Numbered from the stretch's first letter, positions 13,392 through 24,000 are shown. The stretch: 24,000 nt of DNA from Khoudiadiopia massiliensis (GCA_900290095.1 OKQS01000001.1:526431-550430); one strand, 5' to 3'. Notes: generated from the letters alone by a model not told the origin. Numbers and translations are program-made.

Positions 13392-15995
13392 TTACTTTAG
13401 AGAATCCTCAACCGCCTGGCTTACTGCTTTCAATCCGCCAACGATGATGATTTTCTCATAGTTTGCCTTCTGGATATGTTTGGCAATCGCTTTGGGTAAG
13501 TCTGCCTTCTTCGTCAGAAGGACGGGAACATCTGCCCTTGCTGCTACGGGTCCCGCTGCCAGGGCATCGGCAAAGTCTTCGCCGGAGGCGAGATAGGCGG
13601 TGGTGGCTTTGGGGAAGAAGCGTTCAGCAATCATGGCTGACGTTTCATAACGAGTTTCCCCACCGATCCGTTCGATCTTTTGGGGTATGTCTTTCACCAC
13701 AGAATCTGTCAAGGCCGCTTTACCGCCCAAGACCAGGGCCGAAGAGACCTTCATATCTTGGATTGTCTTTTTAATGACATCAGGTAAGGCATTGGTCTTG
13801 GTGAGGAGGATGGGATAAGCCATCTTGCCGGCATAGGGGCTGATGGAAAGGGCATCCGCATAGTTGAGCCCGGTAGCCAGGATGACCTTCTCCGGATTCC
13901 CCTTTAGCTTAGCCATTCTCCAGGCAATCAGAGCCGATGTCTCATAACGGTCGGCCCCACCGATCCGGCTGGACTTCCAGCCCTTCTTTACTGCGCCTTC
14001 AACTTCATTGGAGAGGGCATTGTTCCCGCCAATGAGGATGACTTCTTTTGCACCAAGTCGGCTTGTTTCTGCCTTGACGCCTCCGTCCAATGACCGAGTC
14101 TTCGTTAAAAGAATCGGCGCATTCAGAGCCTTAGCTAATACGCCGGCCGTCAAGGCATCGGCAAAGTTATCAGACCGGGCCAAGATAACATAGTCGGCAT
14201 GGTCAAAGTTCTTCTTGGAGAGGACAATAGCTGTCTCAATCCGGTCTTCTCCGGCGATCCGTTCCGTCGCTCTCTTTTCCGTATTTGAGGGCGTCGTTCC
14301 GGGCTTGGGATCCGGTCCGGGTTGGTAAACTGTCTTCCACTGGGCCTGGACCATGGTGTTCTTATTCACTGTAATTTCATCGCCGACCGTCTTCTTTTCT
14401 CCCTCAACCATCCAGCCGTTAAAGGCCTTCCCTGCCGGCACTTCGAAGCCGTTTTCGGGAAGCTTCACGGTAACGGTCTGACCCTTCTTATAGGCCGATA
14501 CCGGCATAGAGCCTTTCGCTCCATTGCCATCGTAACCGATGAAGAAGAAGTCATTCTTGTAGTTGATGTCGTAATTATTCAGAGGACTGGGAATACCGGT
14601 CGGGTTGTGGAGGGTGGGGTCCTGCTTATAGCCCAAGTTGGTAAAAGCAGACCAGTTGGAGGGGGGAACAAAGAGGCCGCCTTCCGCCTTGTTTTGGTCA
14701 AAACCGGTGGTCTCGTCAAGATGGATATTCTTATAATAAGTACCTGGATCCACGATCAGGTCCTTGTATTCTTCCGCTGAAGAGTCCGGCATGGCAGCCG
14801 CTTTTTTATCATAAATTGCCCCGCCTGCTTCTTGGGCCGTATTCCCTTGGAAGAGGGTATTCTCTTCGCAGGTTAAATCGCCGCCTTCATCCAGGAAAAT
14901 CCCACCACCTTGTTTGGATGTGTTGTTCCGGACCAGGACATTTCTCAAGGTCACCTTGCCATTTGTGGTCAGGGCACCTCCATAATGGCTACTACTGTTT
15001 CCCTCAATTGTGGCATTTTCAGCGGTGAAAGTAGAATCCTGTAAGGAAATGGCTCCACCGGAAGCGGCACCTTTGTTTCCGGAAATCAGGATGGAATCTC
15101 TGCTGGCTCCCTTGAGATTCACCTCACTGTCCCTGGCCCCAATAGCCGTACCATAGAGCCTTCCCTGGTCTCCTGTCCCTGTGCGCTCCATCCTATTATT
15201 CATGATTCGTCCGGCTTGTATGTTTAGATGACCATTGACAAGATAAATAGCGCTACTCAGGAGGACTTCATTATTTTTTACTGTAGCGATATTATCTGAA
15301 ATCTCACCACCCAGCATAGTAAAGGCCACGTATTGTTCCGGCACTCCGTTTGGCCTTCCATTGAGAAAGATAACGCTACCGGCAGAATAAGGCTTATCAA
15401 TATGGCTCTGGTTGTTATGGATCTTTCCCCCATACATATCAAATGTCCCGGAGGTGACATTGACCGCTGAGGCCCAATAGTCCCCGCTGGTTACCATATT
15501 TTTAATTTCCACCCCACCATACATCTTGAGATGACCCGGGGTTAAACCTCCCCCACCCGGAGCACCGGCTCCGATAAAAACAGCCGGTATTCTTCGCGGA
15601 TTATCTTTAGAAGCTGAAGAAGTGATCGTCAAATCATTCTCGTTTCCCTGTGGATTCTCCCTCCCCAGGGACAGGGTGGAATCATTGACGATGGCGAAAC
15701 AGAATTTGTTCAGGTTTAGGGTATGTCCCTGACCCAAAAGGATGGTATCTTTTGTAATTCCTAAAGTGTGCTCTCCGTCAGGCATGACAATATCCGCCCC
15801 TAAGCGAATGATGTTCTCCTGACCATCTTCACCCTCCATCCGAATCTTGTGGAGAGCTTGTCCAAGCTCCACTGGCGTAGTAACTTTAATATCCAGCCCT
15901 CCTTCCGCCTTGGCAATTGGGGTCCCGGGCAAGAAGCCCAGGACCATGACCAAGGCGAGGACCAGGGCAAGCGTCCGTCGTCTTAATCCTTTCAT
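13392..15995 (-). CDS. Secreted cell-surface protein: beta-helix with Pmp-like GGA(I/L) repeats, a Listeria-Bacteroides-type repeat, and three C-terminal CWB2 wall-binding repeats
   Basis: 867 aa. The signal peptide is MKGLRRRTLALVLALVMVLGFLPGTPIAKA/EGG. It has repeated GGAISL, GGALTT, GGGIFL and FQGNTAQEAGGAIY motifs. The segment YDGNGAKGSMP...FNGWMVEGEKKTVGDEITVNKNTMVQAQW is flg_new-like. A Pro/Thr linker follows, then three ~98-aa CWB2 repeats. AAGGAG RBS. Confidence 0.85.
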   Translation of the reverse strand: MKGLRRRTLALVLALVMVLGFLPGTPIAKAEGGLDIKVTTPVELGQALHKIRMEGEDGQENIIRLGADIVMPDGEHTLGITKDTILLGQGHTLNLNKFCFAIVNDSTLSLGRENPQGNENDLTITSSASKDNPRRIPAVFIGAGAPGGGGLTPGHLKMYGGVEIKNMVTSGDYWASAVNVTSGTFDMYGGKIHNNQSHIDKPYSAGSVIFLNGRPNGVPEQYVAFTMLGGEISDNIATVKNNEVLLSSAIYLVNGHLNIQAGRIMNNRMERTGTGDQGRLYGTAIGARDSEVNLKGASRDSILISGNKGAASGGAISLQDSTFTAENATIEGNSSSHYGGALTTNGKVTLRNVLVRNNTSKQGGGIFLDEGGDLTCEENTLFQGNTAQEAGGAIYDKKAAAMPDSSAEEYKDLIVDPGTYYKNIHLDETTGFDQNKAEGGLFVPPSNWSAFTNLGYKQDPTLHNPTGIPSPLNNYDINYKNDFFFIGYDGNGAKGSMPVSAYKKGQTVTVKLPENGFEVPAGKAFNGWMVEGEKKTVGDEITVNKNTMVQAQWKTVYQPGPDPKPGTTPSNTEKRATERIAGEDRIETAIVLSKKNFDHADYVILARSDNFADALTAGVLAKALNAPILLTKTRSLDGGVKAETSRLGAKEVILIGGNNALSNEVEGAVKKGWKSSRIGGADRYETSALIAWRMAKLKGNPEKVILATGLNYADALSISPYAGKMAYPILLTKTNALPDVIKKTIQDMKVSSALVLGGKAALTDSVVKDIPQKIERIGGETRYETSAMIAERFFPKATTAYLASGEDFADALAAGPVAARADVPVLLTKKADLPKAIAKHIQKANYEKIIIVGGLKAVSQAVEDSLK
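13395..14264 (-). repeat. Three tandem CWB2 (cell wall binding repeat 2) modules at protein level
   Basis: The repeat units start at aa 578 (ERIAGEDRIETA), aa 676 (SRIGGADRYETS) and aa 775 (ERIGGETRYETS). Each carries the (F/Y)ADAL ... P(I/V)LLTK ... (I/L)GG pattern typical of Clostridioides Cwp proteins. Confidence 0.8.
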
Positions 15996-16022: not shown

Positions 16023-16547
16023 TTATTTCTCTACATTGGCCTCCATAACCGCCGTGTAGTTTTGGAACTTACCATCGACTACCAATAAATTAGTAAAAGT
16101 TACCTTGACCTTCTTACTTTCGTTATTCAAGCCAAAGGCTTCCTGGGCATTCTTCATCTTGGCCCCGACAGGAGTTGATTGTGGATAATTAAGCTCTTCT
16201 ACTGCAGGATATGAAGAGCCCATCTCACCCTGCTCATCAATGACGCTGTCAGGACTTAAGAAGAGTCCGTCGGCTTCCTCAGTACAGCCGATGTTCTCAT
16301 AGCTATAATCTACGCATACGACCTGTTTAGGTTTCATATCTGTAAACTCGTTTCTTCCATCAAGAACCTTTACGGAATTTATGACCAGCTTCCACTTTCC
16401 GTCCACCACCCATTCTTCTCCCGGACCAAGGGTTTGTTCCAATTCGTTCCCTTTCGACTTCTCCTTGCCGGCGTCAGGCTTTTTACTTCCACAAGCCGTA
16501 AAAGCTAATAAAACTACTAAGCAAAGAACTAATTTTTTAATCTTCAT
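16023..16547 (-). CDS. Small lipoprotein, possibly DUF4352-like Ig-fold
   Basis: 174 aa. The lipobox is LLAFTA-C19 (MKIKKLVLCLVVLLAFTACGSKK). The beta-rich body (WKLVINSVKVLDGRNEF...VCVDYSYENIG...) resembles DUF4352 lipoproteins, but that family assignment is tentative. TAAGGAGG RBS. Confidence 0.7.
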   Translation of the reverse strand: MKIKKLVLCLVVLLAFTACGSKKPDAGKEKSKGNELEQTLGPGEEWVVDGKWKLVINSVKVLDGRNEFTDMKPKQVVCVDYSYENIGCTEEADGLFLSPDSVIDEQGEMGSSYPAVEELNYPQSTPVGAKMKNAQEAFGLNNESKKVKVTFTNLLVVDGKFQNYTAVMEANVEK

Positions 16548-16577: not shown

Positions 16578-18074
16578 TTATCCTCTTCCCATTACCGATA
16601 TTATCTTCTGGAATAGGGGCATAGAATAAAAATCTTTTTTCTTAAGTCCATCCAGATCAGCGGCCTTCCCGGCGTCTATGATCCCCTCCGGCAAATTAAT
16701 GATCTCTTTCTTCTCATTAATCATGGGACTCATCTCTATCTTTTCATCCCTGTACCTGATCGTGATTCTAATATTCGTTGTCCCCTTTTCCTGCCTCTGA
16801 CAGATCAAGGTGGTCGAACTCTGAGCTATGGTATCCAGAATATTGTTTTCCACCTCTTTTACAGACCCGTCCTTCTCTGTCTTTATCTCCTTAAGGCTTA
16901 CGGTGGCCTTGTCCCATTTCGGGACTACAAGATAGTAGTCTTCTCCTATGAGCTCGCTGTTTTCAAAGTTCGGGTTATCCCTGGTTGCCAATAGGAGCCT
17001 GGGATCATCAAAATCGTTGAAAATGTTCTGGCAGGGATCCAATCTGGTCAACACGTCTTCCAATTCTTTCTCCGCATTGGCATAGCCCACATAGACTATC
17101 AATCCTTTGATCTTTTCGTCGTAGGGATCCAGACCCATTGCCCTGGCCATTTTTACGAACTGCGGAGAATAGCCCCTGTCATTAACTTTTTTGGAATAGA
17201 GTTCCAGGGTATTTTGATATAGGCCCGGCCCCCAGCTATAGTAAGCGTTGAAAATGAACATTGGCCTTCCCGTAGGATCCAGATAAAATCTTCTTTCAGG
17301 CACATCCCGACCCTCCCAAATATCTTGCAAAGCCATGCCCTCATAGTGGGTTACATCACCCAGATAGTGGTAATTCTCGGCGTTGTAGTTCCAAACTTCC
17401 ACCATTCTCTGATAATCATAGTCAATGCTTTCTTCCATAAGGTCCATGGCTTCTTCTTTGTCGATTCCTAGATATGTAAGCAGGTCCTCATCTTTGATGA
17501 ATTTCCCGTCATCCAGGGTGAAGTTAAAAACCTTATGTGTGGAGCCGTCTCCGTCTCCGCCGTTCGTATATTGCAGGTGAATGCTAAGAATCTGATCATC
17601 TTCATACACTGAAAATGTGGAACTTATCATTATATAATCAGGATCCAAATCATTCTTGGCAGCATTGTAGGTCTCTTTTAAGAGATTAATTGTTTCCTCA
17701 ATTTGCTTATTGGCCCTTTGAGCATCCTCAGAATCCAGAAGAATTCGTGGAAAATGGACACCGTTAACGAGATTTTTTGCAGCTTTTTCATGTTTGGGCT
17801 CTATGAAGTCCTTCCAGACTTCCCTATCCTCAACGTGGTCAGACATGGACCCTGCTGTTGCACCCTGAACAAGTTTTCCCCTTGCCTTGGCATCCTTTAT
17901 CCCTCCGGCTACAAGCTTAGTGGCTATGCCTGTTGTTGCAGAGACTTGGGAAGTCTGACCTACACCTGATTGGTCCTGACTTTCGGAGCCATCCGAAGTC
18001 TTGCCTTTGCCGCTGCAGGCTACCAAAATTAAGGCCAAGGCCAATATAAGAAGCCTATATTTTCCACTTTTCAT
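16578..18074 (-). CDS. Large lipoprotein of unknown function
   Basis: 498 aa. The lipobox is ILVA-C20 (MKSGKYRLLILALALILVACSGKG), followed by a Ser/Gly/Gln-rich linker. The segment VHFPRILLDSEDAQRANKQIEETI...FNFTLDDGKFIKDEDLL is reminiscent of DUF4163/DUF3298 (RsiV/PdaC-like) domains, at low certainty. AGGAGGG RBS. Confidence 0.7.
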   Translation of the reverse strand: MKSGKYRLLILALALILVACSGKGKTSDGSESQDQSGVGQTSQVSATTGIATKLVAGGIKDAKARGKLVQGATAGSMSDHVEDREVWKDFIEPKHEKAAKNLVNGVHFPRILLDSEDAQRANKQIEETINLLKETYNAAKNDLDPDYIMISSTFSVYEDDQILSIHLQYTNGGDGDGSTHKVFNFTLDDGKFIKDEDLLTYLGIDKEEAMDLMEESIDYDYQRMVEVWNYNAENYHYLGDVTHYEGMALQDIWEGRDVPERRFYLDPTGRPMFIFNAYYSWGPGLYQNTLELYSKKVNDRGYSPQFVKMARAMGLDPYDEKIKGLIVYVGYANAEKELEDVLTRLDPCQNIFNDFDDPRLLLATRDNPNFENSELIGEDYYLVVPKWDKATVSLKEIKTEKDGSVKEVENNILDTIAQSSTTLICQRQEKGTTNIRITIRYRDEKIEMSPMINEKKEIINLPEGIIDAGKAADLDGLKKKDFYSMPLFQKIISVMGRG

Positions 18075-18090: not shown

Positions 18091-19284
18091 CTATAGACCT
18101 AAAAGATCGTGTTTAGCCTTATCGAACTCCTCTTGGGAAATAACTCCCGCATCCAACAGTTTTTTCATCTTAATTAATTTATCTGTAGGATCTTCCTGTG
18201 TCTGATTCGCTTGCCCGGCACCGAAATTCGGATTATAGGTGCTGTCTGTACCTTCCTGCTGAAGACCGCCCATCATTCCTCCGGCTGCATTCATTCCCAG
18301 ACCCATAAAGGCCATACCGGCTCCGCCGCCACCATTTTCTCCTGCTGCCTGCATGCCTCTGGCAACTGACTGCTGCAAAAAAGCATTGCCACGTCTGCCT
18401 GAAAGGGCATCGGCTTTTTTAACATCGGACATAAGAAGCTTGGTGTCTTCGTCATATTCTATGGCAAGGATTGCCGTTTTTACTATTGCCAAGCCCCTGT
18501 CGGACCTCCACTGATAGGCATCTTCCACCGCTGTTGTCAGAGATTGGGCAAAGCCTATTTGATCCCCCTGTATCCTGCTCATGCGGTTCCCCTTGGACGG
18601 ATCATTGGTATAGTTCGAAAATGCGGCTGACAAGCTTCCCACAACTTCGTTAAATAGCTGCTCACCCGCAGGATTGTCCATATCGCCAAAGTCGAAGACC
18701 GGTGCGTTTTGAATAATATATTTTTGCGGGACGAAGTTTTTAACAAAGAGAAGAGGGTCCACAATCTTCAAAGTATAGGTTCCTCTGGTTACCGCCCCTA
18801 CCTGGGTTCCGAAAAATGCGTCGTCCCAATAGATCTCACTTTGGGTTCCAAATCGGTTGTTTGGAATCTCCTTTAAATTGACATAGAAGGCCAGTTGCTG
18901 GGATCCGGGTTGGCCTCCGAATTTTATTTTCTCCCAGGTTGACTTTATAATTGACGCATTTAGGCCATTTCCTTCAAATATACTTTGGGAATTAACATCA
19001 TCTGATGTAAATATAAAGCCTCCGGGTTCAGCCACTATTCCCGTAATAGCCCCGTCCTGCATGGTGATAAGGGCTGTTCCCTCAGGAACTATGATCTTGC
19101 TTCCGTTGCTTATAATATTGTTATTTCCCTTGGTATTTTCTCCCCTGCCATTATTCTGGCCTTGGGCCATAGCCGGAAAAACTCCGGCTGTGGCGGAAAG
19201 CCCATCTTGAGGTAGGTAAAAATCTTTCCATTGATCGGCAAAGGTCCCTGAGAGAGCCCCTGCAAACGCTTTAATAAATCCCAT
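18091..19284 (-). CDS. SPFH/Band-7 superfamily protein of the YdjI type (COG4260, 'virion core protein-like') with a C-terminal SHOCT domain
   Basis: 397 aa. The N-terminus MGFIKAFAGALSGTFADQWKDFY is characteristic of this family. It has a Gly/Met-rich linker (GGGGAGMAFMGLGMNAAGGMMGGL). The C-terminal DKLIKMKKLLDAGVISQEEFDKAKHDLLG matches the SHOCT consensus. GGAGG RBS. Confidence 0.75.
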   Translation of the reverse strand: MGFIKAFAGALSGTFADQWKDFYLPQDGLSATAGVFPAMAQGQNNGRGENTKGNNNIISNGSKIIVPEGTALITMQDGAITGIVAEPGGFIFTSDDVNSQSIFEGNGLNASIIKSTWEKIKFGGQPGSQQLAFYVNLKEIPNNRFGTQSEIYWDDAFFGTQVGAVTRGTYTLKIVDPLLFVKNFVPQKYIIQNAPVFDFGDMDNPAGEQLFNEVVGSLSAAFSNYTNDPSKGNRMSRIQGDQIGFAQSLTTAVEDAYQWRSDRGLAIVKTAILAIEYDEDTKLLMSDVKKADALSGRRGNAFLQQSVARGMQAAGENGGGGAGMAFMGLGMNAAGGMMGGLQQEGTDSTYNPNFGAGQANQTQEDPTDKLIKMKKLLDAGVISQEEFDKAKHDLLGL

Positions 19285-19313
19285 CTCGACCTCCTAATTT
19301 TTATCCTAATTTT

Positions 19314-19685
19314 TTAGTTAACCGCTTTAGGTAATTTGACAAACATAAATATTGTGGCTGCAAAGAGAAGAACGCTTGATGCCAGCAAGAGGTAGAATCC
19401 GTATGTTACAAATTCTTTAAATTCTCCCAATGAGCTGTACCGATAAATTGCCAATGACAGGTTTAAGCCTGCAAAAATAAGGGCGGGGATTCTTTTCTTG
19501 AATATGGTTGTGACTATTGTCAAAACTGCAAGACATATTAATATAACTCCGGGCCCGACTCCGCTTTCAGACTCTAATAAATTTGCCGAAATTCCGAAAA
19601 GTTCAACTGCTGGCAGAACTGTGGAAATACAAACCAGCAGGGCAAATATGATGACAAGAATTTGACTAACATGCATTTTTTTCAT
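19314..19685 (-). CDS. Hypothetical 4-TM small membrane protein
   Basis: 123 aa with four hydrophobic segments (ILVIIFALLVCISTVL, GVILICLAVLTIVTTIF, ALIFAGLNLSLAIY, FYLLLASSVLLFAATIFMFV). AAGGAGG RBS. Confidence 0.65.
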   Translation of the reverse strand: MKKMHVSQILVIIFALLVCISTVLPAVELFGISANLLESESGVGPGVILICLAVLTIVTTIFKKRIPALIFAGLNLSLAIYRYSSLGEFKEFVTYGFYLLLASSVLLFAATIFMFVKLPKAVN

Positions 19686-19745
19686 GATTTCCTCCTTATT
19701 TTTATTTTTTAATTATGTAGGTATTACAATTCCTATTAAAATTTT

Positions 19746-21284
19746 TTATTTGGTCGTTTTTTCCTCGTCCATCTCCTCCAATCTTTTTTTAGCCTCCAAG
19801 GCTTCATCAAGCACGCCCCTATCCATCGCTTCCTTTAAATGATCGTCTTCACTTAAATCCACACGATTTCCTTTGAGCATGGTGCTGTTTTCGCCCCACA
19901 TTCTCGCAGTGCTGAGACCATATTTGCTGGTCTCAAAATCGTCCTCTTGTATGAGATTGGAAATTTCATGTTTGGTTTCCAGCTCATAGTGGTGCCTTTC
20001 ATTTGAATTGCGGTATCTCAAGTACATTACTATGTAAAAAACAAATCCTGACAGCAGAAGGACATAGAACCACTGCCTTGAACTTTGAAAATCCGTGCCC
20101 CGGTACCTGTCCATAGCCGCTATCATGTTAATGACAAAGGCTGCAAGGCCTCCGAAGATCTCGACCAGGACTGCGAATAAGAAGAGCTTGGTGAAGTTGA
20201 TTGGTACACTTCCCATGGTTTCACTGGTTCTTGCATTTACCGCCACATAGTGGAGGAGGTTCTTCTTCCCCTTATTTTCCATGTAGCTGTAGAGCCAGAC
20301 CGGAAGATAAGCCGACTTCCATGAATCACCTTTAACTGTGTAGTCTTCGTCCTCCCACTTTACCCCCCTGTCGTACCGGGTCAGAGTGTCCTGGGCGGCA
20401 AGTCTTGCCACATCCGAGCTTTGAACGTCGACGACTTTCTTGAGTTTTTTAATATTTGTGTCTCTCTTTTCAGAAGTGTAGCCTTTCAGGTAATTTGCGT
20501 TGAAATTGACACAATTTTCAGTATCGAAGGGCATAATTGCGTTTATAACATTTGTTGTCTTTGTCTTTGATGTGTAGTCCAATTTGTCGGTGCTCGACTC
20601 TATCGAAAGGTCGTCAATGTAGATGTCAAACTCCCTTTTTATCCTGTAAACATCGGCATCGTATTCAAAGTGCTTATTCTTGCCCTCACCAACTTCCCGG
20701 CAATCCGTTTGAATCTCGCCTTTGCCTTCAAGTCTCATATGTCCGTTGATATCGACCAGCATGTAGGGTATGTAAACGCCGCAAATATTTTCTGTGCTGA
20801 ATTCCCTGGTGAACTTGGGATGGGCGAAGAATTTCCTCTTATTTACAAAATCCGAAATCTTTTCCTTGGCATCTTCTCTTGTAATCTTGAAAGGCAAAAT
20901 CACATCCGGTACAGCCCCGTTTGGAATTTGATTGTTCAAAGACAGGGTATTCCTGCACCAATGGCACCTTGCCTGGGTTGTGGTCTTCGTGTCAATTACA
21001 ACTTCAGCCCCGCAGCTTTCGCATTTGAGCGTTATCAGGTCTTCGCTGTTGTCGTCAATGTCCTGGGCCCCGGATCTTATGCTGGTTCCTTCGAGGGTGC
21101 TGATATCCTGATCCTCGGGGGCTAAATCAGGTTCAAATTCATGGCGGCAAAAGTTGCACCTGAGCTTGCCCGTCTTTGTGTTTGTTTCAATGTCGGTCGA
21201 TCCGCACTTCGGGCATTTGATCTGCCCGTCTTTTAGACCCCCTTCATTTTCTATAACTTTAAAATCTTTATTTTCTTCGCTCAT
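19746..21284 (-). CDS. Double zinc-ribbon, 2-TM membrane protein of the YdjG type
   Basis: 512 aa. Two CxxC-x15-CxxC ribbons are present (C24/27/43/46 and C88/91/107/110). The conserved core is VILPFKITREDAKEKISDFV...GVYIPYMLVD...YLPVWLYSY...VNARTSETMGSVP. Two TMs lie at ~365-390 and ~405-424, followed by an acidic helical tail. GGAGGTG RBS. Confidence 0.7.
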   Translation of the reverse strand: MSEENKDFKVIENEGGLKDGQIKCPKCGSTDIETNTKTGKLRCNFCRHEFEPDLAPEDQDISTLEGTSIRSGAQDIDDNSEDLITLKCESCGAEVVIDTKTTTQARCHWCRNTLSLNNQIPNGAVPDVILPFKITREDAKEKISDFVNKRKFFAHPKFTREFSTENICGVYIPYMLVDINGHMRLEGKGEIQTDCREVGEGKNKHFEYDADVYRIKREFDIYIDDLSIESSTDKLDYTSKTKTTNVINAIMPFDTENCVNFNANYLKGYTSEKRDTNIKKLKKVVDVQSSDVARLAAQDTLTRYDRGVKWEDEDYTVKGDSWKSAYLPVWLYSYMENKGKKNLLHYVAVNARTSETMGSVPINFTKLFLFAVLVEIFGGLAAFVINMIAAMDRYRGTDFQSSRQWFYVLLLSGFVFYIVMYLRYRNSNERHHYELETKHEISNLIQEDDFETSKYGLSTARMWGENSTMLKGNRVDLSEDDHLKEAMDRGVLDEALEAKKRLEEMDEEKTTK

Positions 21285-21428
21285 AATTCACCTCCAAAAG
21301 ATTTTCCTCTTTCCGGCTAAAGATACGCCTTGCTTATCCAACTCAATTTAATCACGGTATATATAGAAAATAAATTGTCCTAAGGTTCATCTTTTGGCCA
21401 TTTTTGCAAAATAGACCTTTGGTCTATA

Positions 21429-21469
21429 TAAAAAACAGCCACAATTTAGGCCTCCTAAACTGTGACTGT
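21429..21469 (-). terminator. Intrinsic terminator of the LuxR-type regulator gene
   Basis: A 15-bp stem forms between 21435-21449 and 21455-21469. Its two mismatches on the plus strand become G-U pairs on the minus strand, so the stem is complete only in the minus-strand RNA. A T-run follows on the minus strand (complement of 21430-21434). Confidence 0.8.
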
Positions 21470-21503
21470 TTCAACATTTGTCAATAAAGATCAATTTTAA
21501 ATT

Positions 21504-23108
21504 TTAAATTTTCTTATTATTCTTGTTATTACTTTCATTTTTACCGATAATATTATCGATCATTCCACAACCTTTTATCATATCCAGATATAGGAGCAGC
21601 TCTCCCCTGGAAGACACATTGAGCTTTTTATATATCTTCAAGATGTGGTGTTTGGCAGTGCTTTTGCTCACAAAAAGCAAATCGGGCAAGTCATCCATAT
21701 TGTGGCCTTGTATGAGCAGGGATAGAACATTCATCTCAGCAGGAGTCAGATCTTCCGTAGCTTCTATGAAATTCTTGAATTTATTGGCAAGGTAAACCGG
21801 CACCCCGTCAAAATTATCGGTTTTCATATTCTTTCTTAGATTTTTGATCAATTCATTAATTTCATAAAACCTGAATTTTTCAACATCATAGCCCCCATTA
21901 GGATCTAAAATATTATCCTGATTCCCAATCATCTCCAAACTTTCTGTGATAGGCGTTATATATCTCTTTGTAAAAATTAAGCCTCCGCTTATAGAAAAGA
22001 ATAGAAACACGATGACAGTAATTACAAGGCTGATAAGATTTTCAAACAGGTCCCTATTAAAGTCACTCTTTGGCACCATGACGACCAACATGGACCTGTT
22101 GCCATTTTTTAAGAGGGGGATTTCTCTGGTCACCCCCAGATAGGTGTTGTCCTTACTAATAAATTCCACCAAGTTTGATCCCTGTTTTTTTATGGTCAAA
22201 GTGCTTTTCGGCAGGTAGTAATAGCCGCTATCTGTTCCGCTGCTCAAGGTCAGTGAAGGGTCGATTTTTCCGTCCTTATTCGCTACCGGAAGAAAAAGTG
22301 TTGTAAGTTTGTCCAATTTGCTTGGCTGTGACAGCTTCTCCTTGAAATACATCTGCTCGACTTCGAAACCGCAGATCCCATAAAAGCTTCCATCCTTGCC
22401 TATGATTGGCAGGGTTATAAGCATTATTCTCTGATCTGTCCCGGGCAAGGTAAAAACCGGGGTTATATTATATGACTCATAAAGGGGAGCGTCTCCTTTG
22501 TTCAAATGCAAATAATTTGGTATTTGTGAGATGTCATATTCCAACTTCCATTTTCTGTGGGGCATTGAATTGTGCTTTTTTGCAACCTCTACATCCCCTC
22601 TGTAAACTATAATTGAAGAGTCTTTCAGGCTCCTGGTATCCAGCTTAATGTAAAGGCCGCTCCTGAATTCTCCTTCCCTATTAACCTTTGAATTGACGGT
22701 TGTATTCCACAATACAAAAGCTCCGGAAGCGTCGGCATTGAACATGCTGTTTTTCAGGTCTTCAAATATTGAGTCCTGAATTTTGGCCAGGGCTTTCCGA
22801 TTATCCTTCAATTTCTCAAAACTTATATTTTCTTTCTCCATAAGGTCTTCCAGTTTTGACCCGGAAGTTTTGGAAAGGTCCATGGCGGAAATTGCAGATT
22901 TGCTGAAGTATCCCTTGATCTCTTTTTTCATTATGGACAACTGCATATCGAAATTCTTGACATAATCTTTTCTGACACTTTTAAATTGGCCAAAGAGGGC
23001 CATAGCCACAAGAATATATATGAGCAGTAAACCTGCAAACAAAATCAAATATTCAAACAGCTTCCTATACATGGAATTTTTTTTACGCTTTTTTAATACG
23101 TCAAACAA
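21504..23108 (-). CDS. Membrane-anchored one-component regulator: TM, ~315-aa extracytoplasmic (Cache-like) sensor domain, TM, then a LuxR/FixJ-type HTH
   Basis: 534 aa with a TTG start at 23108 and AGGAG 7 nt upstream. TM1 is at ~17-39 and TM2 at ~358-380. The C-terminal LTPAEMNVLSLLIQGHNMDDLPDLLFVSKSTAKHHILKIYKKLNVSSRGELL is a LuxR-type HTH. There is no receiver domain. Confidence 0.8.
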   Translation of the reverse strand: MFDVLKKRKKNSMYRKLFEYLILFAGLLLIYILVAMALFGQFKSVRKDYVKNFDMQLSIMKKEIKGYFSKSAISAMDLSKTSGSKLEDLMEKENISFEKLKDNRKALAKIQDSIFEDLKNSMFNADASGAFVLWNTTVNSKVNREGEFRSGLYIKLDTRSLKDSSIIVYRGDVEVAKKHNSMPHRKWKLEYDISQIPNYLHLNKGDAPLYESYNITPVFTLPGTDQRIMLITLPIIGKDGSFYGICGFEVEQMYFKEKLSQPSKLDKLTTLFLPVANKDGKIDPSLTLSSGTDSGYYYLPKSTLTIKKQGSNLVEFISKDNTYLGVTREIPLLKNGNRSMLVVMVPKSDFNRDLFENLISLVITVIVFLFFSISGGLIFTKRYITPITESLEMIGNQDNILDPNGGYDVEKFRFYEINELIKNLRKNMKTDNFDGVPVYLANKFKNFIEATEDLTPAEMNVLSLLIQGHNMDDLPDLLFVSKSTAKHHILKIYKKLNVSSRGELLLYLDMIKGCGMIDNIIGKNESNNKNNKKI

Positions 23109-23129: not shown

Positions 23130-24000
23130 TTAATTTTCCAGCCCCCGCCTGCATTCTTCGACAAGCTTCCCGGCATTCTCTCCTTGCATATATCTGTCTT
23201 CCCAATTCTTTTGATTCTTTCTGATAAAATCGTAAAATTTCAGCACCTTATCATAGTTGTATGTTTCCGGTAAAAAAGAATATGTTTTTCTCATCTCGGC
23301 CAGGGCTTCATATAGCTGCTTATAGCTGTCATTCTTAAATTTGAAGTCTGAAATTTTCTCAAAGGCTTCTTTTCTTACGGGCATATAGCCGGCTTCCGTG
23401 ACAAATTTTAAATTTCTCTCACCTTCGGTGATCCACTTTGCAAAAATTGTTGCAGCCTTGGCCTTTTCCTCTGTTGTTTTGTATGCACAAAGTCCCGTCC
23501 CTGCCAAGGTGTCAACATCTTTTCCGGGATTTTTTGTGGGCAAAGGAAGGACCTTTAAGTTCATGGCTTCTGAAGTGTTGTCCGGATAGGTTACCGTATC
23601 GTTGTAATATAGGACGGCGGCACTGGAGCTTATCCCTGCCATAGTCTCACCGGTCATCATTTGTGTATTAGCATAGAGATCTGATACTACAATATTACCC
23701 TTTACCAGGCTTGACAGAAAAGCATCCAATTCCGTGTGAAAAGCCTGATTGTCAGTGTCATACCAACCTACATCATTGTGAAGTTTGTTATCGGGATTTG
23801 CTGACAAGCAGGCAAGTTCGGCTTCCCTGAGCAAATAGTCCAGGGCACAGAAGGGCTTGCCTCCGGACCAGGTATGGAAGATTTCCGCTGCATCAAAGAA
23901 ACCTTCCCAACTTTTCAGTTGGTCATAAGTCACGCCTGTGGCTTCTGAGAATCTGTCAAACATGCTTCCATTTATATAGAGCATATGAGTGGATTTTGAA
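23130..24000 (-). CDS. ABC-type extracellular solute-binding protein, family 1 (N-terminus outside the window)
   Basis: The frame stays open to the window edge (...SKSTHMLYINGSMFDRF...), so the track's M at 23984 is internal. The C-terminal two-thirds look like a sugar-type SBP (LAGTGLCAYKTTEEKAKAATIFAKWITEGERNLKFVTEAGYMPVRKEAF). No permease or ATPase gene lies downstream. Confidence 0.7.
   Translation of the reverse strand, partial: SKSTHMLYINGSMFDRFSEATGVTYDQLKSWEGFFDAAEIFHTWSGGKPFCALDYLLREAELACLSANPDNKLHNDVGWYDTDNQAFHTELDAFLSSLVKGNIVVSDLYANTQMMTGETMAGISSSAAVLYYNDTVTYPDNTSEAMNLKVLPLPTKNPGKDVDTLAGTGLCAYKTTEEKAKAATIFAKWITEGERNLKFVTEAGYMPVRKEAFEKISDFKFKNDSYKQLYEALAEMRKTYSFLPETYNYDKVLKFYDFIRKNQKNWEDRYMQGENAGKLVEECRRGLEN

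Follow-up and report, generated by a model that had tools for sequence, protein, structure and literature searches.

A 24,000-nucleotide (nt) stretch of the Khoudiadiopia massiliensis genome (GCA_900290095.1, OKQS01000001.1:526431-550430), referred to below as the window, carries three open reading frames (ORFs) between positions 18,091 and 21,284. All three lie on the minus strand, as do all the other features of the window located in this paper; they are separated by gaps of 60 and 29 nt and have good ribosome-binding sites. In the direction of transcription, they encode a 512-aa zinc-ribbon membrane protein (19746..21284), a 123-aa protein with four hydrophobic segments (19314..19685), and a 397-aa soluble SPFH protein of the Band_7_1 type with a SHOCT C terminus (18091..19284). 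A preliminary description of this DNA treated the three genes together as a trio related to the ydjG, ydjH, and ydjI genes of Bacillus subtilis (also called samG, samH, and samI). We find that the conserved unit is instead a dyad, composed of the SPFH gene and the zinc-ribbon gene and normally in the order opposite to that in the window, and that the gene between them is found only in this genus.

Conservation of the gene pair

In a species-level genome collection, relatives of the 512-aa protein are encoded on 182 stretches, and the counts given here refer to the best 80 of these loci. Their sources are Peptoniphilus, Urinicoccus, Lagierella, Citroniella, Anaerococcus, [Eubacterium] infirmum, and Peptostreptococcus and many gut metagenome-assembled genomes (MAGs) labeled Bacilli or Clostridia. 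Full zinc-ribbon ORFs are present in 79 of these loci, and in 77 of them the gene immediately upstream, on the same strand and with a median gap of 3 nt, is the SPFH gene. Locus L090, in which the contig ends within the zinc-ribbon gene, has the same order, for a total of 78 of 80 loci. A SHOCT end is present in 78 of 79 SPFH partners (the exception breaks off within the linker) and in 77 of the 78 loci in which the SPFH gene is directly upstream. The 512-aa protein shares 54 to 75% identity with its counterparts in the remaining 79 loci and 95% with that of a MAG of the same species; for the 397-aa protein and the partner gene of related loci, the corresponding values are 40 to 81% and 97%. 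In host-associated Firmicutes, the dyad is both widespread and tightly conserved.

Among the 80 loci, the window's order of zinc-ribbon gene, four-helix gene, SPFH gene recurs only at L027, from a MAG that belongs to the same species or to a sister species; genome G165, of the same genus, is colinear with the window at 91% DNA identity. Clustering of the neighboring genes over the 80 loci revealed nothing conserved beyond the dyad, and the locus contains no repeats of note that would explain the switch in gene order. The 123-aa gene and the switched order are genus-specific additions to the dyad.

Dyads were also detected in MAGs with labels outside the Firmicutes (L043 and L054, Muribaculaceae; L040, Actinomycetes; L104, Saccharimonas), in which the zinc-ribbon protein is 55 to 58% identical. 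Binning or label error is a more likely source of these than gene transfer. Near-identical copies of the dyad are present on two contigs of one MAG in the pairs L099/L100 (Bacilli) and L030/L031 (Peptoniphilus), and these could represent either duplication or assembly redundancy.

The SPFH-SHOCT protein

The 397-aa protein matches Band_7_1 (PF13421) with 30.1 bits (cutoff, 24), covering profile positions 8 to 122 of 211, and SHOCT (PF09851) with 32.1 bits (cutoff, 27) at residues 368 to 395. When solved structures were searched by sequence, the SPFH profile gave marginal matches to stomatin alone (E = 0.1 to 0.4), so that membership in the SPFH family was decided by the fold search. The model of the protein has 36 fold matches in the PDB at E ≤ 0.001, all with a probability of 1.00; these are HflK/C, stomatin, prohibitin, erlin, flotillin, and QmcA, together with two major vault protein chains. 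The template-modeling score (TM-score) against isolated SPFH domains is up to 0.5 to 0.6 among the matches listed. With Band_7_1 above its cutoff and these fold matches in the PDB, the assignment of the protein to the SPFH family in the preliminary description is settled.

The core of the model (residues ~130 to 295) is confident, with a predicted local distance difference test score (pLDDT) of ~80 to 94. It is followed by a low-complexity linker rich in Gly, Met, and Ala (residues 306 to 365; 18190..18369), which has 16 glycines, 6 methionines, and 9 alanines per 60 residues and is predicted to be disordered (pLDDT of <50 at residues 308 to 363). The protein ends in the SHOCT two-helix hairpin (residues 366 to 397; 18094..18189), in which the helices span residues 366 to 378 and 384 to 395 (pLDDT, ~80 to 90). 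Composition, Pfam, and the model agree on the Gly/Met-rich linker and the SHOCT end, as originally described. The whole sequence contains no cysteine and no hydrophobic segment.

In an alignment of Band_7_1 proteins (A4), three groups can be distinguished, and the Gly/Met linker is common to all of them. The first group consists of the short YdjI-type proteins of pspA operons, which have one ribbon and are 21 to 22% identical to the 397-aa protein; the second consists of long proteins with an MGLIKA start and a double ribbon (31% identical); and the third consists of proteins with an MGFIKA start and a SHOCT end (75 to 82% identical). The MGFIKA start had been taken as the family N terminus, which is correct insofar as it is common to the long SPFH subfamilies, but the short YdjI-type proteins encoded in canonical pspA operons do not have it.

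The same genome encodes a second Band_7_1 paralogue of 405 aa (contig C8:178093-179310; L001:1339-2556), which ends in a double zinc ribbon, matches Band_7_1 with 73.9 bits in addition to DZR/Zn_Ribbon_1, and belongs to the long double-ribbon group of A4. Because SHOCT-ended and ribbon-ended paralogous subfamilies coexist in this genome, the SHOCT is not a local replacement for a ribbon. Sequence comparison indicates that the 397-aa protein is a member of a separate SHOCT-ended SPFH subfamily that is old, widespread, and paralogous to the ribbon-ended forms. The proposal of a rearrangement in which SHOCT replaced the zinc ribbon must therefore be abandoned: nearly all SPFH partners have a SHOCT end, a ribbon-ended paralogue is kept elsewhere in the genome, and the architecture has been known since 2013, when Band_7_1 was reported as the commonest SHOCT partner architecture (Eberhardt et al. 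2013, PMC3581485). Band_7_1 plus SHOCT is exactly the architecture of the 397-aa protein, and that paper gives it neither a zinc-ribbon membrane partner nor a function.

The gene for the C8 paralogue is solitary. It is divergent from ftsH and adjoins a hemolysin-III-like gene, with no YdjG-type gene alongside. Caging of FtsH by SPFH proteins (HflK/C) is known, and the adjacency of ftsH to this ribbon-ended paralogue may be meaningful.

The zinc-ribbon membrane protein

The 512-aa protein has two zinc ribbons of the form CxxC-x15-CxxC. Ribbon 1 (residues 24 to 46; 21147..21215) is formed by cysteines 24, 27, 43, and 46 and is also matched at residues 23 to 46 by the Pfam profile Zn_Ribbon_TF with 25.4 bits, which is below the 29-bit threshold. 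Ribbon 2 (residues 88 to 110; 20955..21023) is formed by C88, C91, C107, and C110, all of which are invariant; across 58 sequences, seven of the eight cysteines are invariant and the remaining one is nearly so. The ribbons are followed by a central, putatively cytoplasmic domain with very long β-hairpins (residues ~126 to 361; 20202..20909), by two transmembrane helices joined by a short loop predicted to lie outside (residues ~362 to 392 and ~403 to 425; 20010..20201), and by a putatively cytoplasmic tail (residues 426 to 512; 19749..20009) with a β-hairpin at residues 438 to 457 and an acidic helix at residues 481 to 511. The hydrophobic helices lie at about residues 362 to 392 and 404 to 423, and the modeled helices are at residues 364 to 389 and 403 to 425. 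Since the N-terminal domain carries Cys4 ribbons and basic residues follow the second helix, this domain and the tail are both predicted to be cytoplasmic.

Cysteine positions, hydropathy, and the model bear out the two ribbons and two C-terminal transmembrane helices of the preliminary description. Its acidic coiled tail is a different matter: the tail is net acidic here (23 D+E versus 13 K+R) and has a helical end, but the acidity is kept in close relatives only and is lost in distant orthologues.

The AlphaFold model of the 512-aa protein, made with 58 sequences, has a pLDDT of 84.7 and a predicted template-modeling score of 0.80. The strands of the central domain (residues 168 to 198, 205 to 229, 307 to 338, and 341 to 350) mostly have a pLDDT of >90, and alignments show that this domain is conserved throughout the YdjG family. 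The central fold of YdjG has been stated to be NTF2-like and related to YpeB (Ravi et al. 2024, PMC11237479). The confident model consists of long β-hairpins and helices, and a Foldseek search with the 512-aa model against the PDB returned zero matches at E ≤ 0.001. An Atlas match of the same protein family resembles (TM-score, 0.59/0.80) a 44,361-member cluster of ~359-aa proteins.

In BLAST comparisons with YdjG-type proteins, including those of canonical operons, the 512-aa protein gives E values of 1e-25 to 1e-35 over ~370 residues. The resulting alignment (A1) extends from the first ribbon to the first transmembrane helix (residues ~20 to 390) and has 37 invariant columns, which include all eight cysteines. 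Canonical YdjG-type proteins (~350 aa; YdjG, ~340 to 370 aa) have one transmembrane helix and stop after it, whereas the 512-aa protein adds a second helix and the 87-residue cytoplasmic tail; this long, two-helix form is a large YdjG subfamily in itself. Among 121 genomes of the same order, there is one close orthologue, in G118 (75% identity), and 36 other genomes have relatives of 327 to 426 aa (mostly ~340 to 375 aa) with 24 to 30% identity. We conclude from these alignments that the homology of the 512-aa protein to YdjG/SamG is genuine, as its earlier placement with YdjG-like proteins had anticipated, and that the second transmembrane helix and the tail are additions. The accompanying idea that metal binding was transferred to this protein from its partner does not hold, because two ribbons are the norm for the YdjG family. 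A genome search found no other YdjG-type gene in this genome, and this single protein might serve both SPFH paralogues.

Two other identities were considered and rejected. One homologue carries the name PD-(D/E)xK nuclease, but the 512-aa protein has no nuclease match in Pfam or NCBIfam and no nuclease among its fold matches. A YdjG-YdjH fusion is not supported, as neither the 512-aa nor the 123-aa protein has a match to TPM, the domain of YdjH; the extension consists of the transmembrane helix and the tail only.

The 123-aa protein

The 123-aa product is a genus-restricted, four-helix membrane protein and only a putative member of the module. It has no family match in Pfam or NCBIfam and no TPM domain, and the earlier statement that it does not resemble YdjH is therefore correct. 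Its database relatives form only 5 clusters, all from this genus and all at least 87% identical. G118, a close relative, lacks the gene, as do 79 of the 80 related loci.

In 21 loci (e.g., L048:6121-6573 and L053:7413-7874), a different, conserved four-transmembrane family (145 to 250 aa; alignment A2) is encoded downstream of the zinc-ribbon gene, in nine of them adjacent to it, and the longer members of this family end in a CxxC...CxxC ribbon. The family is a possible third component that recurs with the module. The gene directly behind the zinc-ribbon gene in 19 loci, most of them from gut MAGs labeled Bacilli (including L040:3222-4127 and L057:7440-8378), encodes a protein of ~290 aa made up of an N-terminal zinc ribbon, a Gln/Asn-rich spacer, and a Yip1-like part with five transmembrane segments.

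We considered the possibility that the three genes are a true trio, with the 123-aa protein replacing YdjH/SamH as the second membrane component. The 123-aa gene lies between the other two with short gaps and no terminator, the A2 family occupies the same relative position in other loci, and the nearest structural neighbors of an Atlas match to the protein include tetraspans fused to zinc ribbons or SHOCT. However, the confinement of the gene to this genus and its absence from nearly all related loci argue against such a role. In addition, hhalign gave a probability of 20% for the comparison of the 123-aa protein with the four-transmembrane family beside other dyads, and the predicted complex of the 123-aa protein with the 512-aa protein scored 0.00, which is equal to the controls. 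Together with the lack of a TPM domain, these results make a true trio unlikely.

Comparison with known systems

Our comparison set for YdjG and YdjI consisted of same-order operons of Pfam-verified identical composition rather than the B. subtilis sequences themselves, and the contexts of 12 of the shorter relatives were retrieved. The canonical operons (L024 to L026) encode, in this order, PspA, a two-ribbon protein with one transmembrane helix, a YdjH-type protein, and a short Band_7_1 protein with a ribbon end; the YdjH-type protein is present in L025 and L026, and L024 has an unfilled gap at that place. The Pfam scores for L026 are 139.6 bits for PspA_IM30, 43 bits for Zn_Ribbon_TF, 83.3 bits for TPM, and 148.9 bits for Band_7_1. 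This is the composition described for pspA-ydjGHI of B. subtilis (PMC8581546, PMC9239133, PMC11237479).

The dyad in the window resembles SamG/SamI in that the neighbor of a ydjG-type gene encodes a soluble SPFH protein of the Band_7_1 type that has a Gly/Met-rich linker, and the 512-aa protein has in common with YdjG a pair of Cys4 ribbons at the N terminus, the central domain, and a transmembrane helix. In contrast to pspA-ydjGHI, the whole genome lacks both pspA and a ydjH gene with a TPM domain. The PspA_IM30 profile (PF04012) has no match in the whole genome (1.53 Mb, 88% complete), while nine control genomes match, and the same is true of the TPM profile (PF04536), which control genomes also match. 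Above the cutoff, PF04012 likewise matches nothing in five further genomes with the dyad, among them G118, which is complete, and nothing in 61 genomes sampled from the same bacterial family. The absence of PspA noted earlier for the window thus extends to the genome and to the sampled family. The further suggestion that the module acts without PspA is supported by these results, but it is not peculiar to this locus: it holds for the whole lineage, and the SamGHI proteins of B. subtilis are already PspA independent in part, with PspA-independent roles described (PMC13713150).

YdjI has a C-terminal zinc finger (PMC8581546, PMC11237479), whereas the 397-aa protein has a SHOCT, a longer N terminus, and the low identity to short YdjI-type proteins given above. 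Of the features of the YdjI/SamI group, solubility, the linker, and a ydjG-type neighbor are present, and the zinc finger and the pspA operon are not.

A second kind of PspA-less arrangement was found at loci L016 to L023 (genomes G012, G087, G064, G099, G025, G028, G054, and G082), where a gene for an SPFH protein with a double ribbon is followed by a YdjG-like gene in 8 of 8 cases. In L016 and L019, which were mapped in detail, a TPM protein comes next (Pfam-checked in L016) and there is no adjacent pspA. These loci are similar to the window in having the SPFH gene directly beside the YdjG-type gene without PspA. They differ from it in that the SPFH protein ends in a double ribbon and is 30 to 34% identical to the window protein but 53 to 59% identical to the C8 paralogue, and in that the YdjG-type protein is ~350 aa with one transmembrane helix. 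The existence of these PspA-less trios implies that PspA-less forms arose or persisted in more than one subfamily.

The complexes HflK/C-FtsH, QmcA-YbbJ, stomatin, and flotillin, in which the SPFH protein has its own membrane anchor, scaffold a membrane client. The 397-aa protein has the same core fold as these proteins but, unlike HflK/C, QmcA, stomatin, and flotillin, has no hydrophobic segment, and its 512-aa partner presumably supplies the anchoring.

Predicted interaction and proposed mechanism

Complex prediction for the 512-aa and 397-aa proteins gave a score of 0.36, compared with 0.09 for the best control, and is graded "weak support"; the mark for this score is reached by 55 of 80 solved complexes and by 3 of 110 mismatches. 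Three runs share 62 to 87% of their contacts and largely agree in placing ribbon 1 (residues 26 to 48) on the body of the SPFH protein at residues 144 to 149, 165 to 168, 202 to 215, and 273 to 276 rather than on the SHOCT. In B. subtilis, YdjG/H are needed to bring the soluble YdjI to the membrane (PMC8581546), and the predicted contact between ribbon 1 and the SPFH body agrees with this dependence.

Taken together, we think it fairly probable that the 512-aa and 397-aa proteins form a two-part receptor-scaffold membrane module that is a PspA-less and YdjH-less relative of SamG/SamI. For this dyad, we infer an interaction, oligomerization, a membrane topology, and a stress-related role as follows. 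The 512-aa protein would be anchored by its two transmembrane helices, with the ribbons, the β-sheet domain, and the C-terminal tail in the cytoplasm, and would act as a membrane receptor that recruits the soluble SPFH-SHOCT protein. By analogy with other SPFH proteins, the latter would probably form a ring- or cage-shaped assembly beneath the membrane, which may organize or restrain membrane-associated processes during envelope stress. The relative in B. subtilis has been reported to be a higher-order oligomer (PMC13713150). Membrane binding and partner binding are both possibilities for the role of the SHOCT, which has been proposed to anchor domains to the inner leaflet of the membrane (Ravi et al., PMC11237479).

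Several points weigh against this receptor-scaffold model. Scores in the range of this complex are, when they pass, "more often wrong than right unless likely beforehand." No solved structure corresponds to the central domain. The only published test of SHOCT as an oligomerization domain was negative (PMC3581485). In the current model for B. subtilis, SamI restrains SamH, and because SamH is absent here, the mechanism of SamI is not simply transferable. Finally, the genome in which PspA and YdjH were sought is only 88% complete.

Transcription unit and neighboring genes

An intrinsic terminator follows the gene upstream of the three ORFs (21425..21472; −26 kcal/mol, z = −6.5; a long hairpin with a 19-bp core stem and then a U-run) and marks the start of the transcription unit. 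Downstream, 16 nt past the SPFH stop codon, is a gene for a 498-aa lipoprotein with a lipobox-like N terminus (16578..18074), which is probably cotranscribed. It is followed after a 30-nt gap by a co-directional gene for a 174-aa lipoprotein (16023..16547), a homologue of which (50% identity) is encoded just past the dyad in Anaerococcus vaginalis, and after a further 27 nt by the gene for an 867-aa surface protein (13392..15995). The 867-aa protein is secreted and has a β-helix-like region of PMP-type repeats and three C-terminal CWB2 domains (Chlam_PMP, 36 bits; CW_binding_2, 201.6 bits). Because of the upstream terminator, the gaps of 16 to 60 nt, and the absence of terminator-like sites between the six co-directional genes, the three ORFs are probably the first half of a six-gene transcript in which the 867-aa gene is last. 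A promoter scan gave 21 sites versus 16.8 ± 3.9 in shuffled sequence, which is no excess.

This arrangement raises the possibility that the module scaffolds the export or anchoring of the two lipoproteins and the CWB2 surface protein. Such a function would be consistent with the probable six-gene operon and its strong upstream terminator, and five Peptoniphilaceae loci have, downstream of the dyad at a distance of 0.6 to 4.4 kb, genes for homologues of the 498-aa lipoprotein (34 to 37% identity). However, this linkage is loose and confined to close relatives, and across the 80 loci the dyad alone is conserved, which makes a dedicated role in export or anchoring improbable.

The upstream gene, which belongs to a separate transcript, encodes a 534-aa membrane protein with a C-terminal LuxR/GerE helix-turn-helix (21504..23108; GerE, 34.6 bits), and is itself preceded by a solute-binding-protein-like gene (23130-23999). 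In G118 (29% identity), A. vaginalis (L037; 59%), and [Eubacterium] infirmum (L038; 27%), a homologue of the 534-aa protein is encoded immediately upstream of the dyad; in G118, the same pair as in the window, a lipoprotein gene and then the LuxR-type gene, occupies this position.

Discussion

The recurrence of a LuxR-type membrane regulator upstream of the dyad in close relatives bears on the idea that the 512-aa protein, with its TFIIB-type ribbons, is a membrane-tethered nucleic-acid-binding regulator under the control of the SPFH protein. There is weak similarity of this protein to Zn_Ribbon_TF, and such ribbons can bind DNA (Popp et al., PMC9239133). However, the ribbon match is below the Pfam cutoff, ribbons also make protein contacts, and ribbon 1 is the predicted contact with the SPFH protein. 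Since, in addition, there is no helix-turn-helix or other DNA-binding domain in the 512-aa protein and no fold match, we regard a regulator of this kind as distinctly unlikely.

A role of the dyad in antiphage defense or abortive infection is very unlikely: the PADLOC match to PDC-S64 (26.7 bits; residues 21 to 117 against profile positions 199 to 292 of 339), the matches of the SHOCT end to phage protein families of unknown function, and the patchy distribution of the dyad within the order are all in its favor, but the PDC-S64 and phage-family matches span only short generic domains (ribbons and SHOCT), no defense genes are nearby, the family is a broad one with strong conservation, and the closest relatives that have been studied function in membrane stress. 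We consider it highly improbable that the YdjG-type β-hairpin domain is itself a membrane-active effector held in check by the SPFH-SHOCT assembly, a self-contained and ESCRT-III-independent device for membrane repair or disruption that would, if real, stand in for PspA in the many anaerobic Firmicutes without it; the lack of another effector gene and the unmatched fold are hints only and not evidence, and neither are the nonsignificant similarities of the 512-aa model to folds of pore-forming proteins (probability, 0.01 to 0.02).

We therefore return to the receptor-scaffold module. The module is real, well conserved, and fairly ordinary: a PspA-less, YdjH-less, SHOCT-type variant of SamG/SamI. 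What the window itself adds is small, namely, one more member of the dyad family and a gene order that is specific to the genus. The value of the dyad lies in the comparison with its only studied relatives, SamG, SamH, and SamI of B. subtilis, which are understood through the recruitment of PspA and the restraint of SamH. The SHOCT dyad is without both, and it would thus be a minimal system in which to study what a soluble SPFH scaffold and a zinc-ribbon receptor do alone, and what the SHOCT does.

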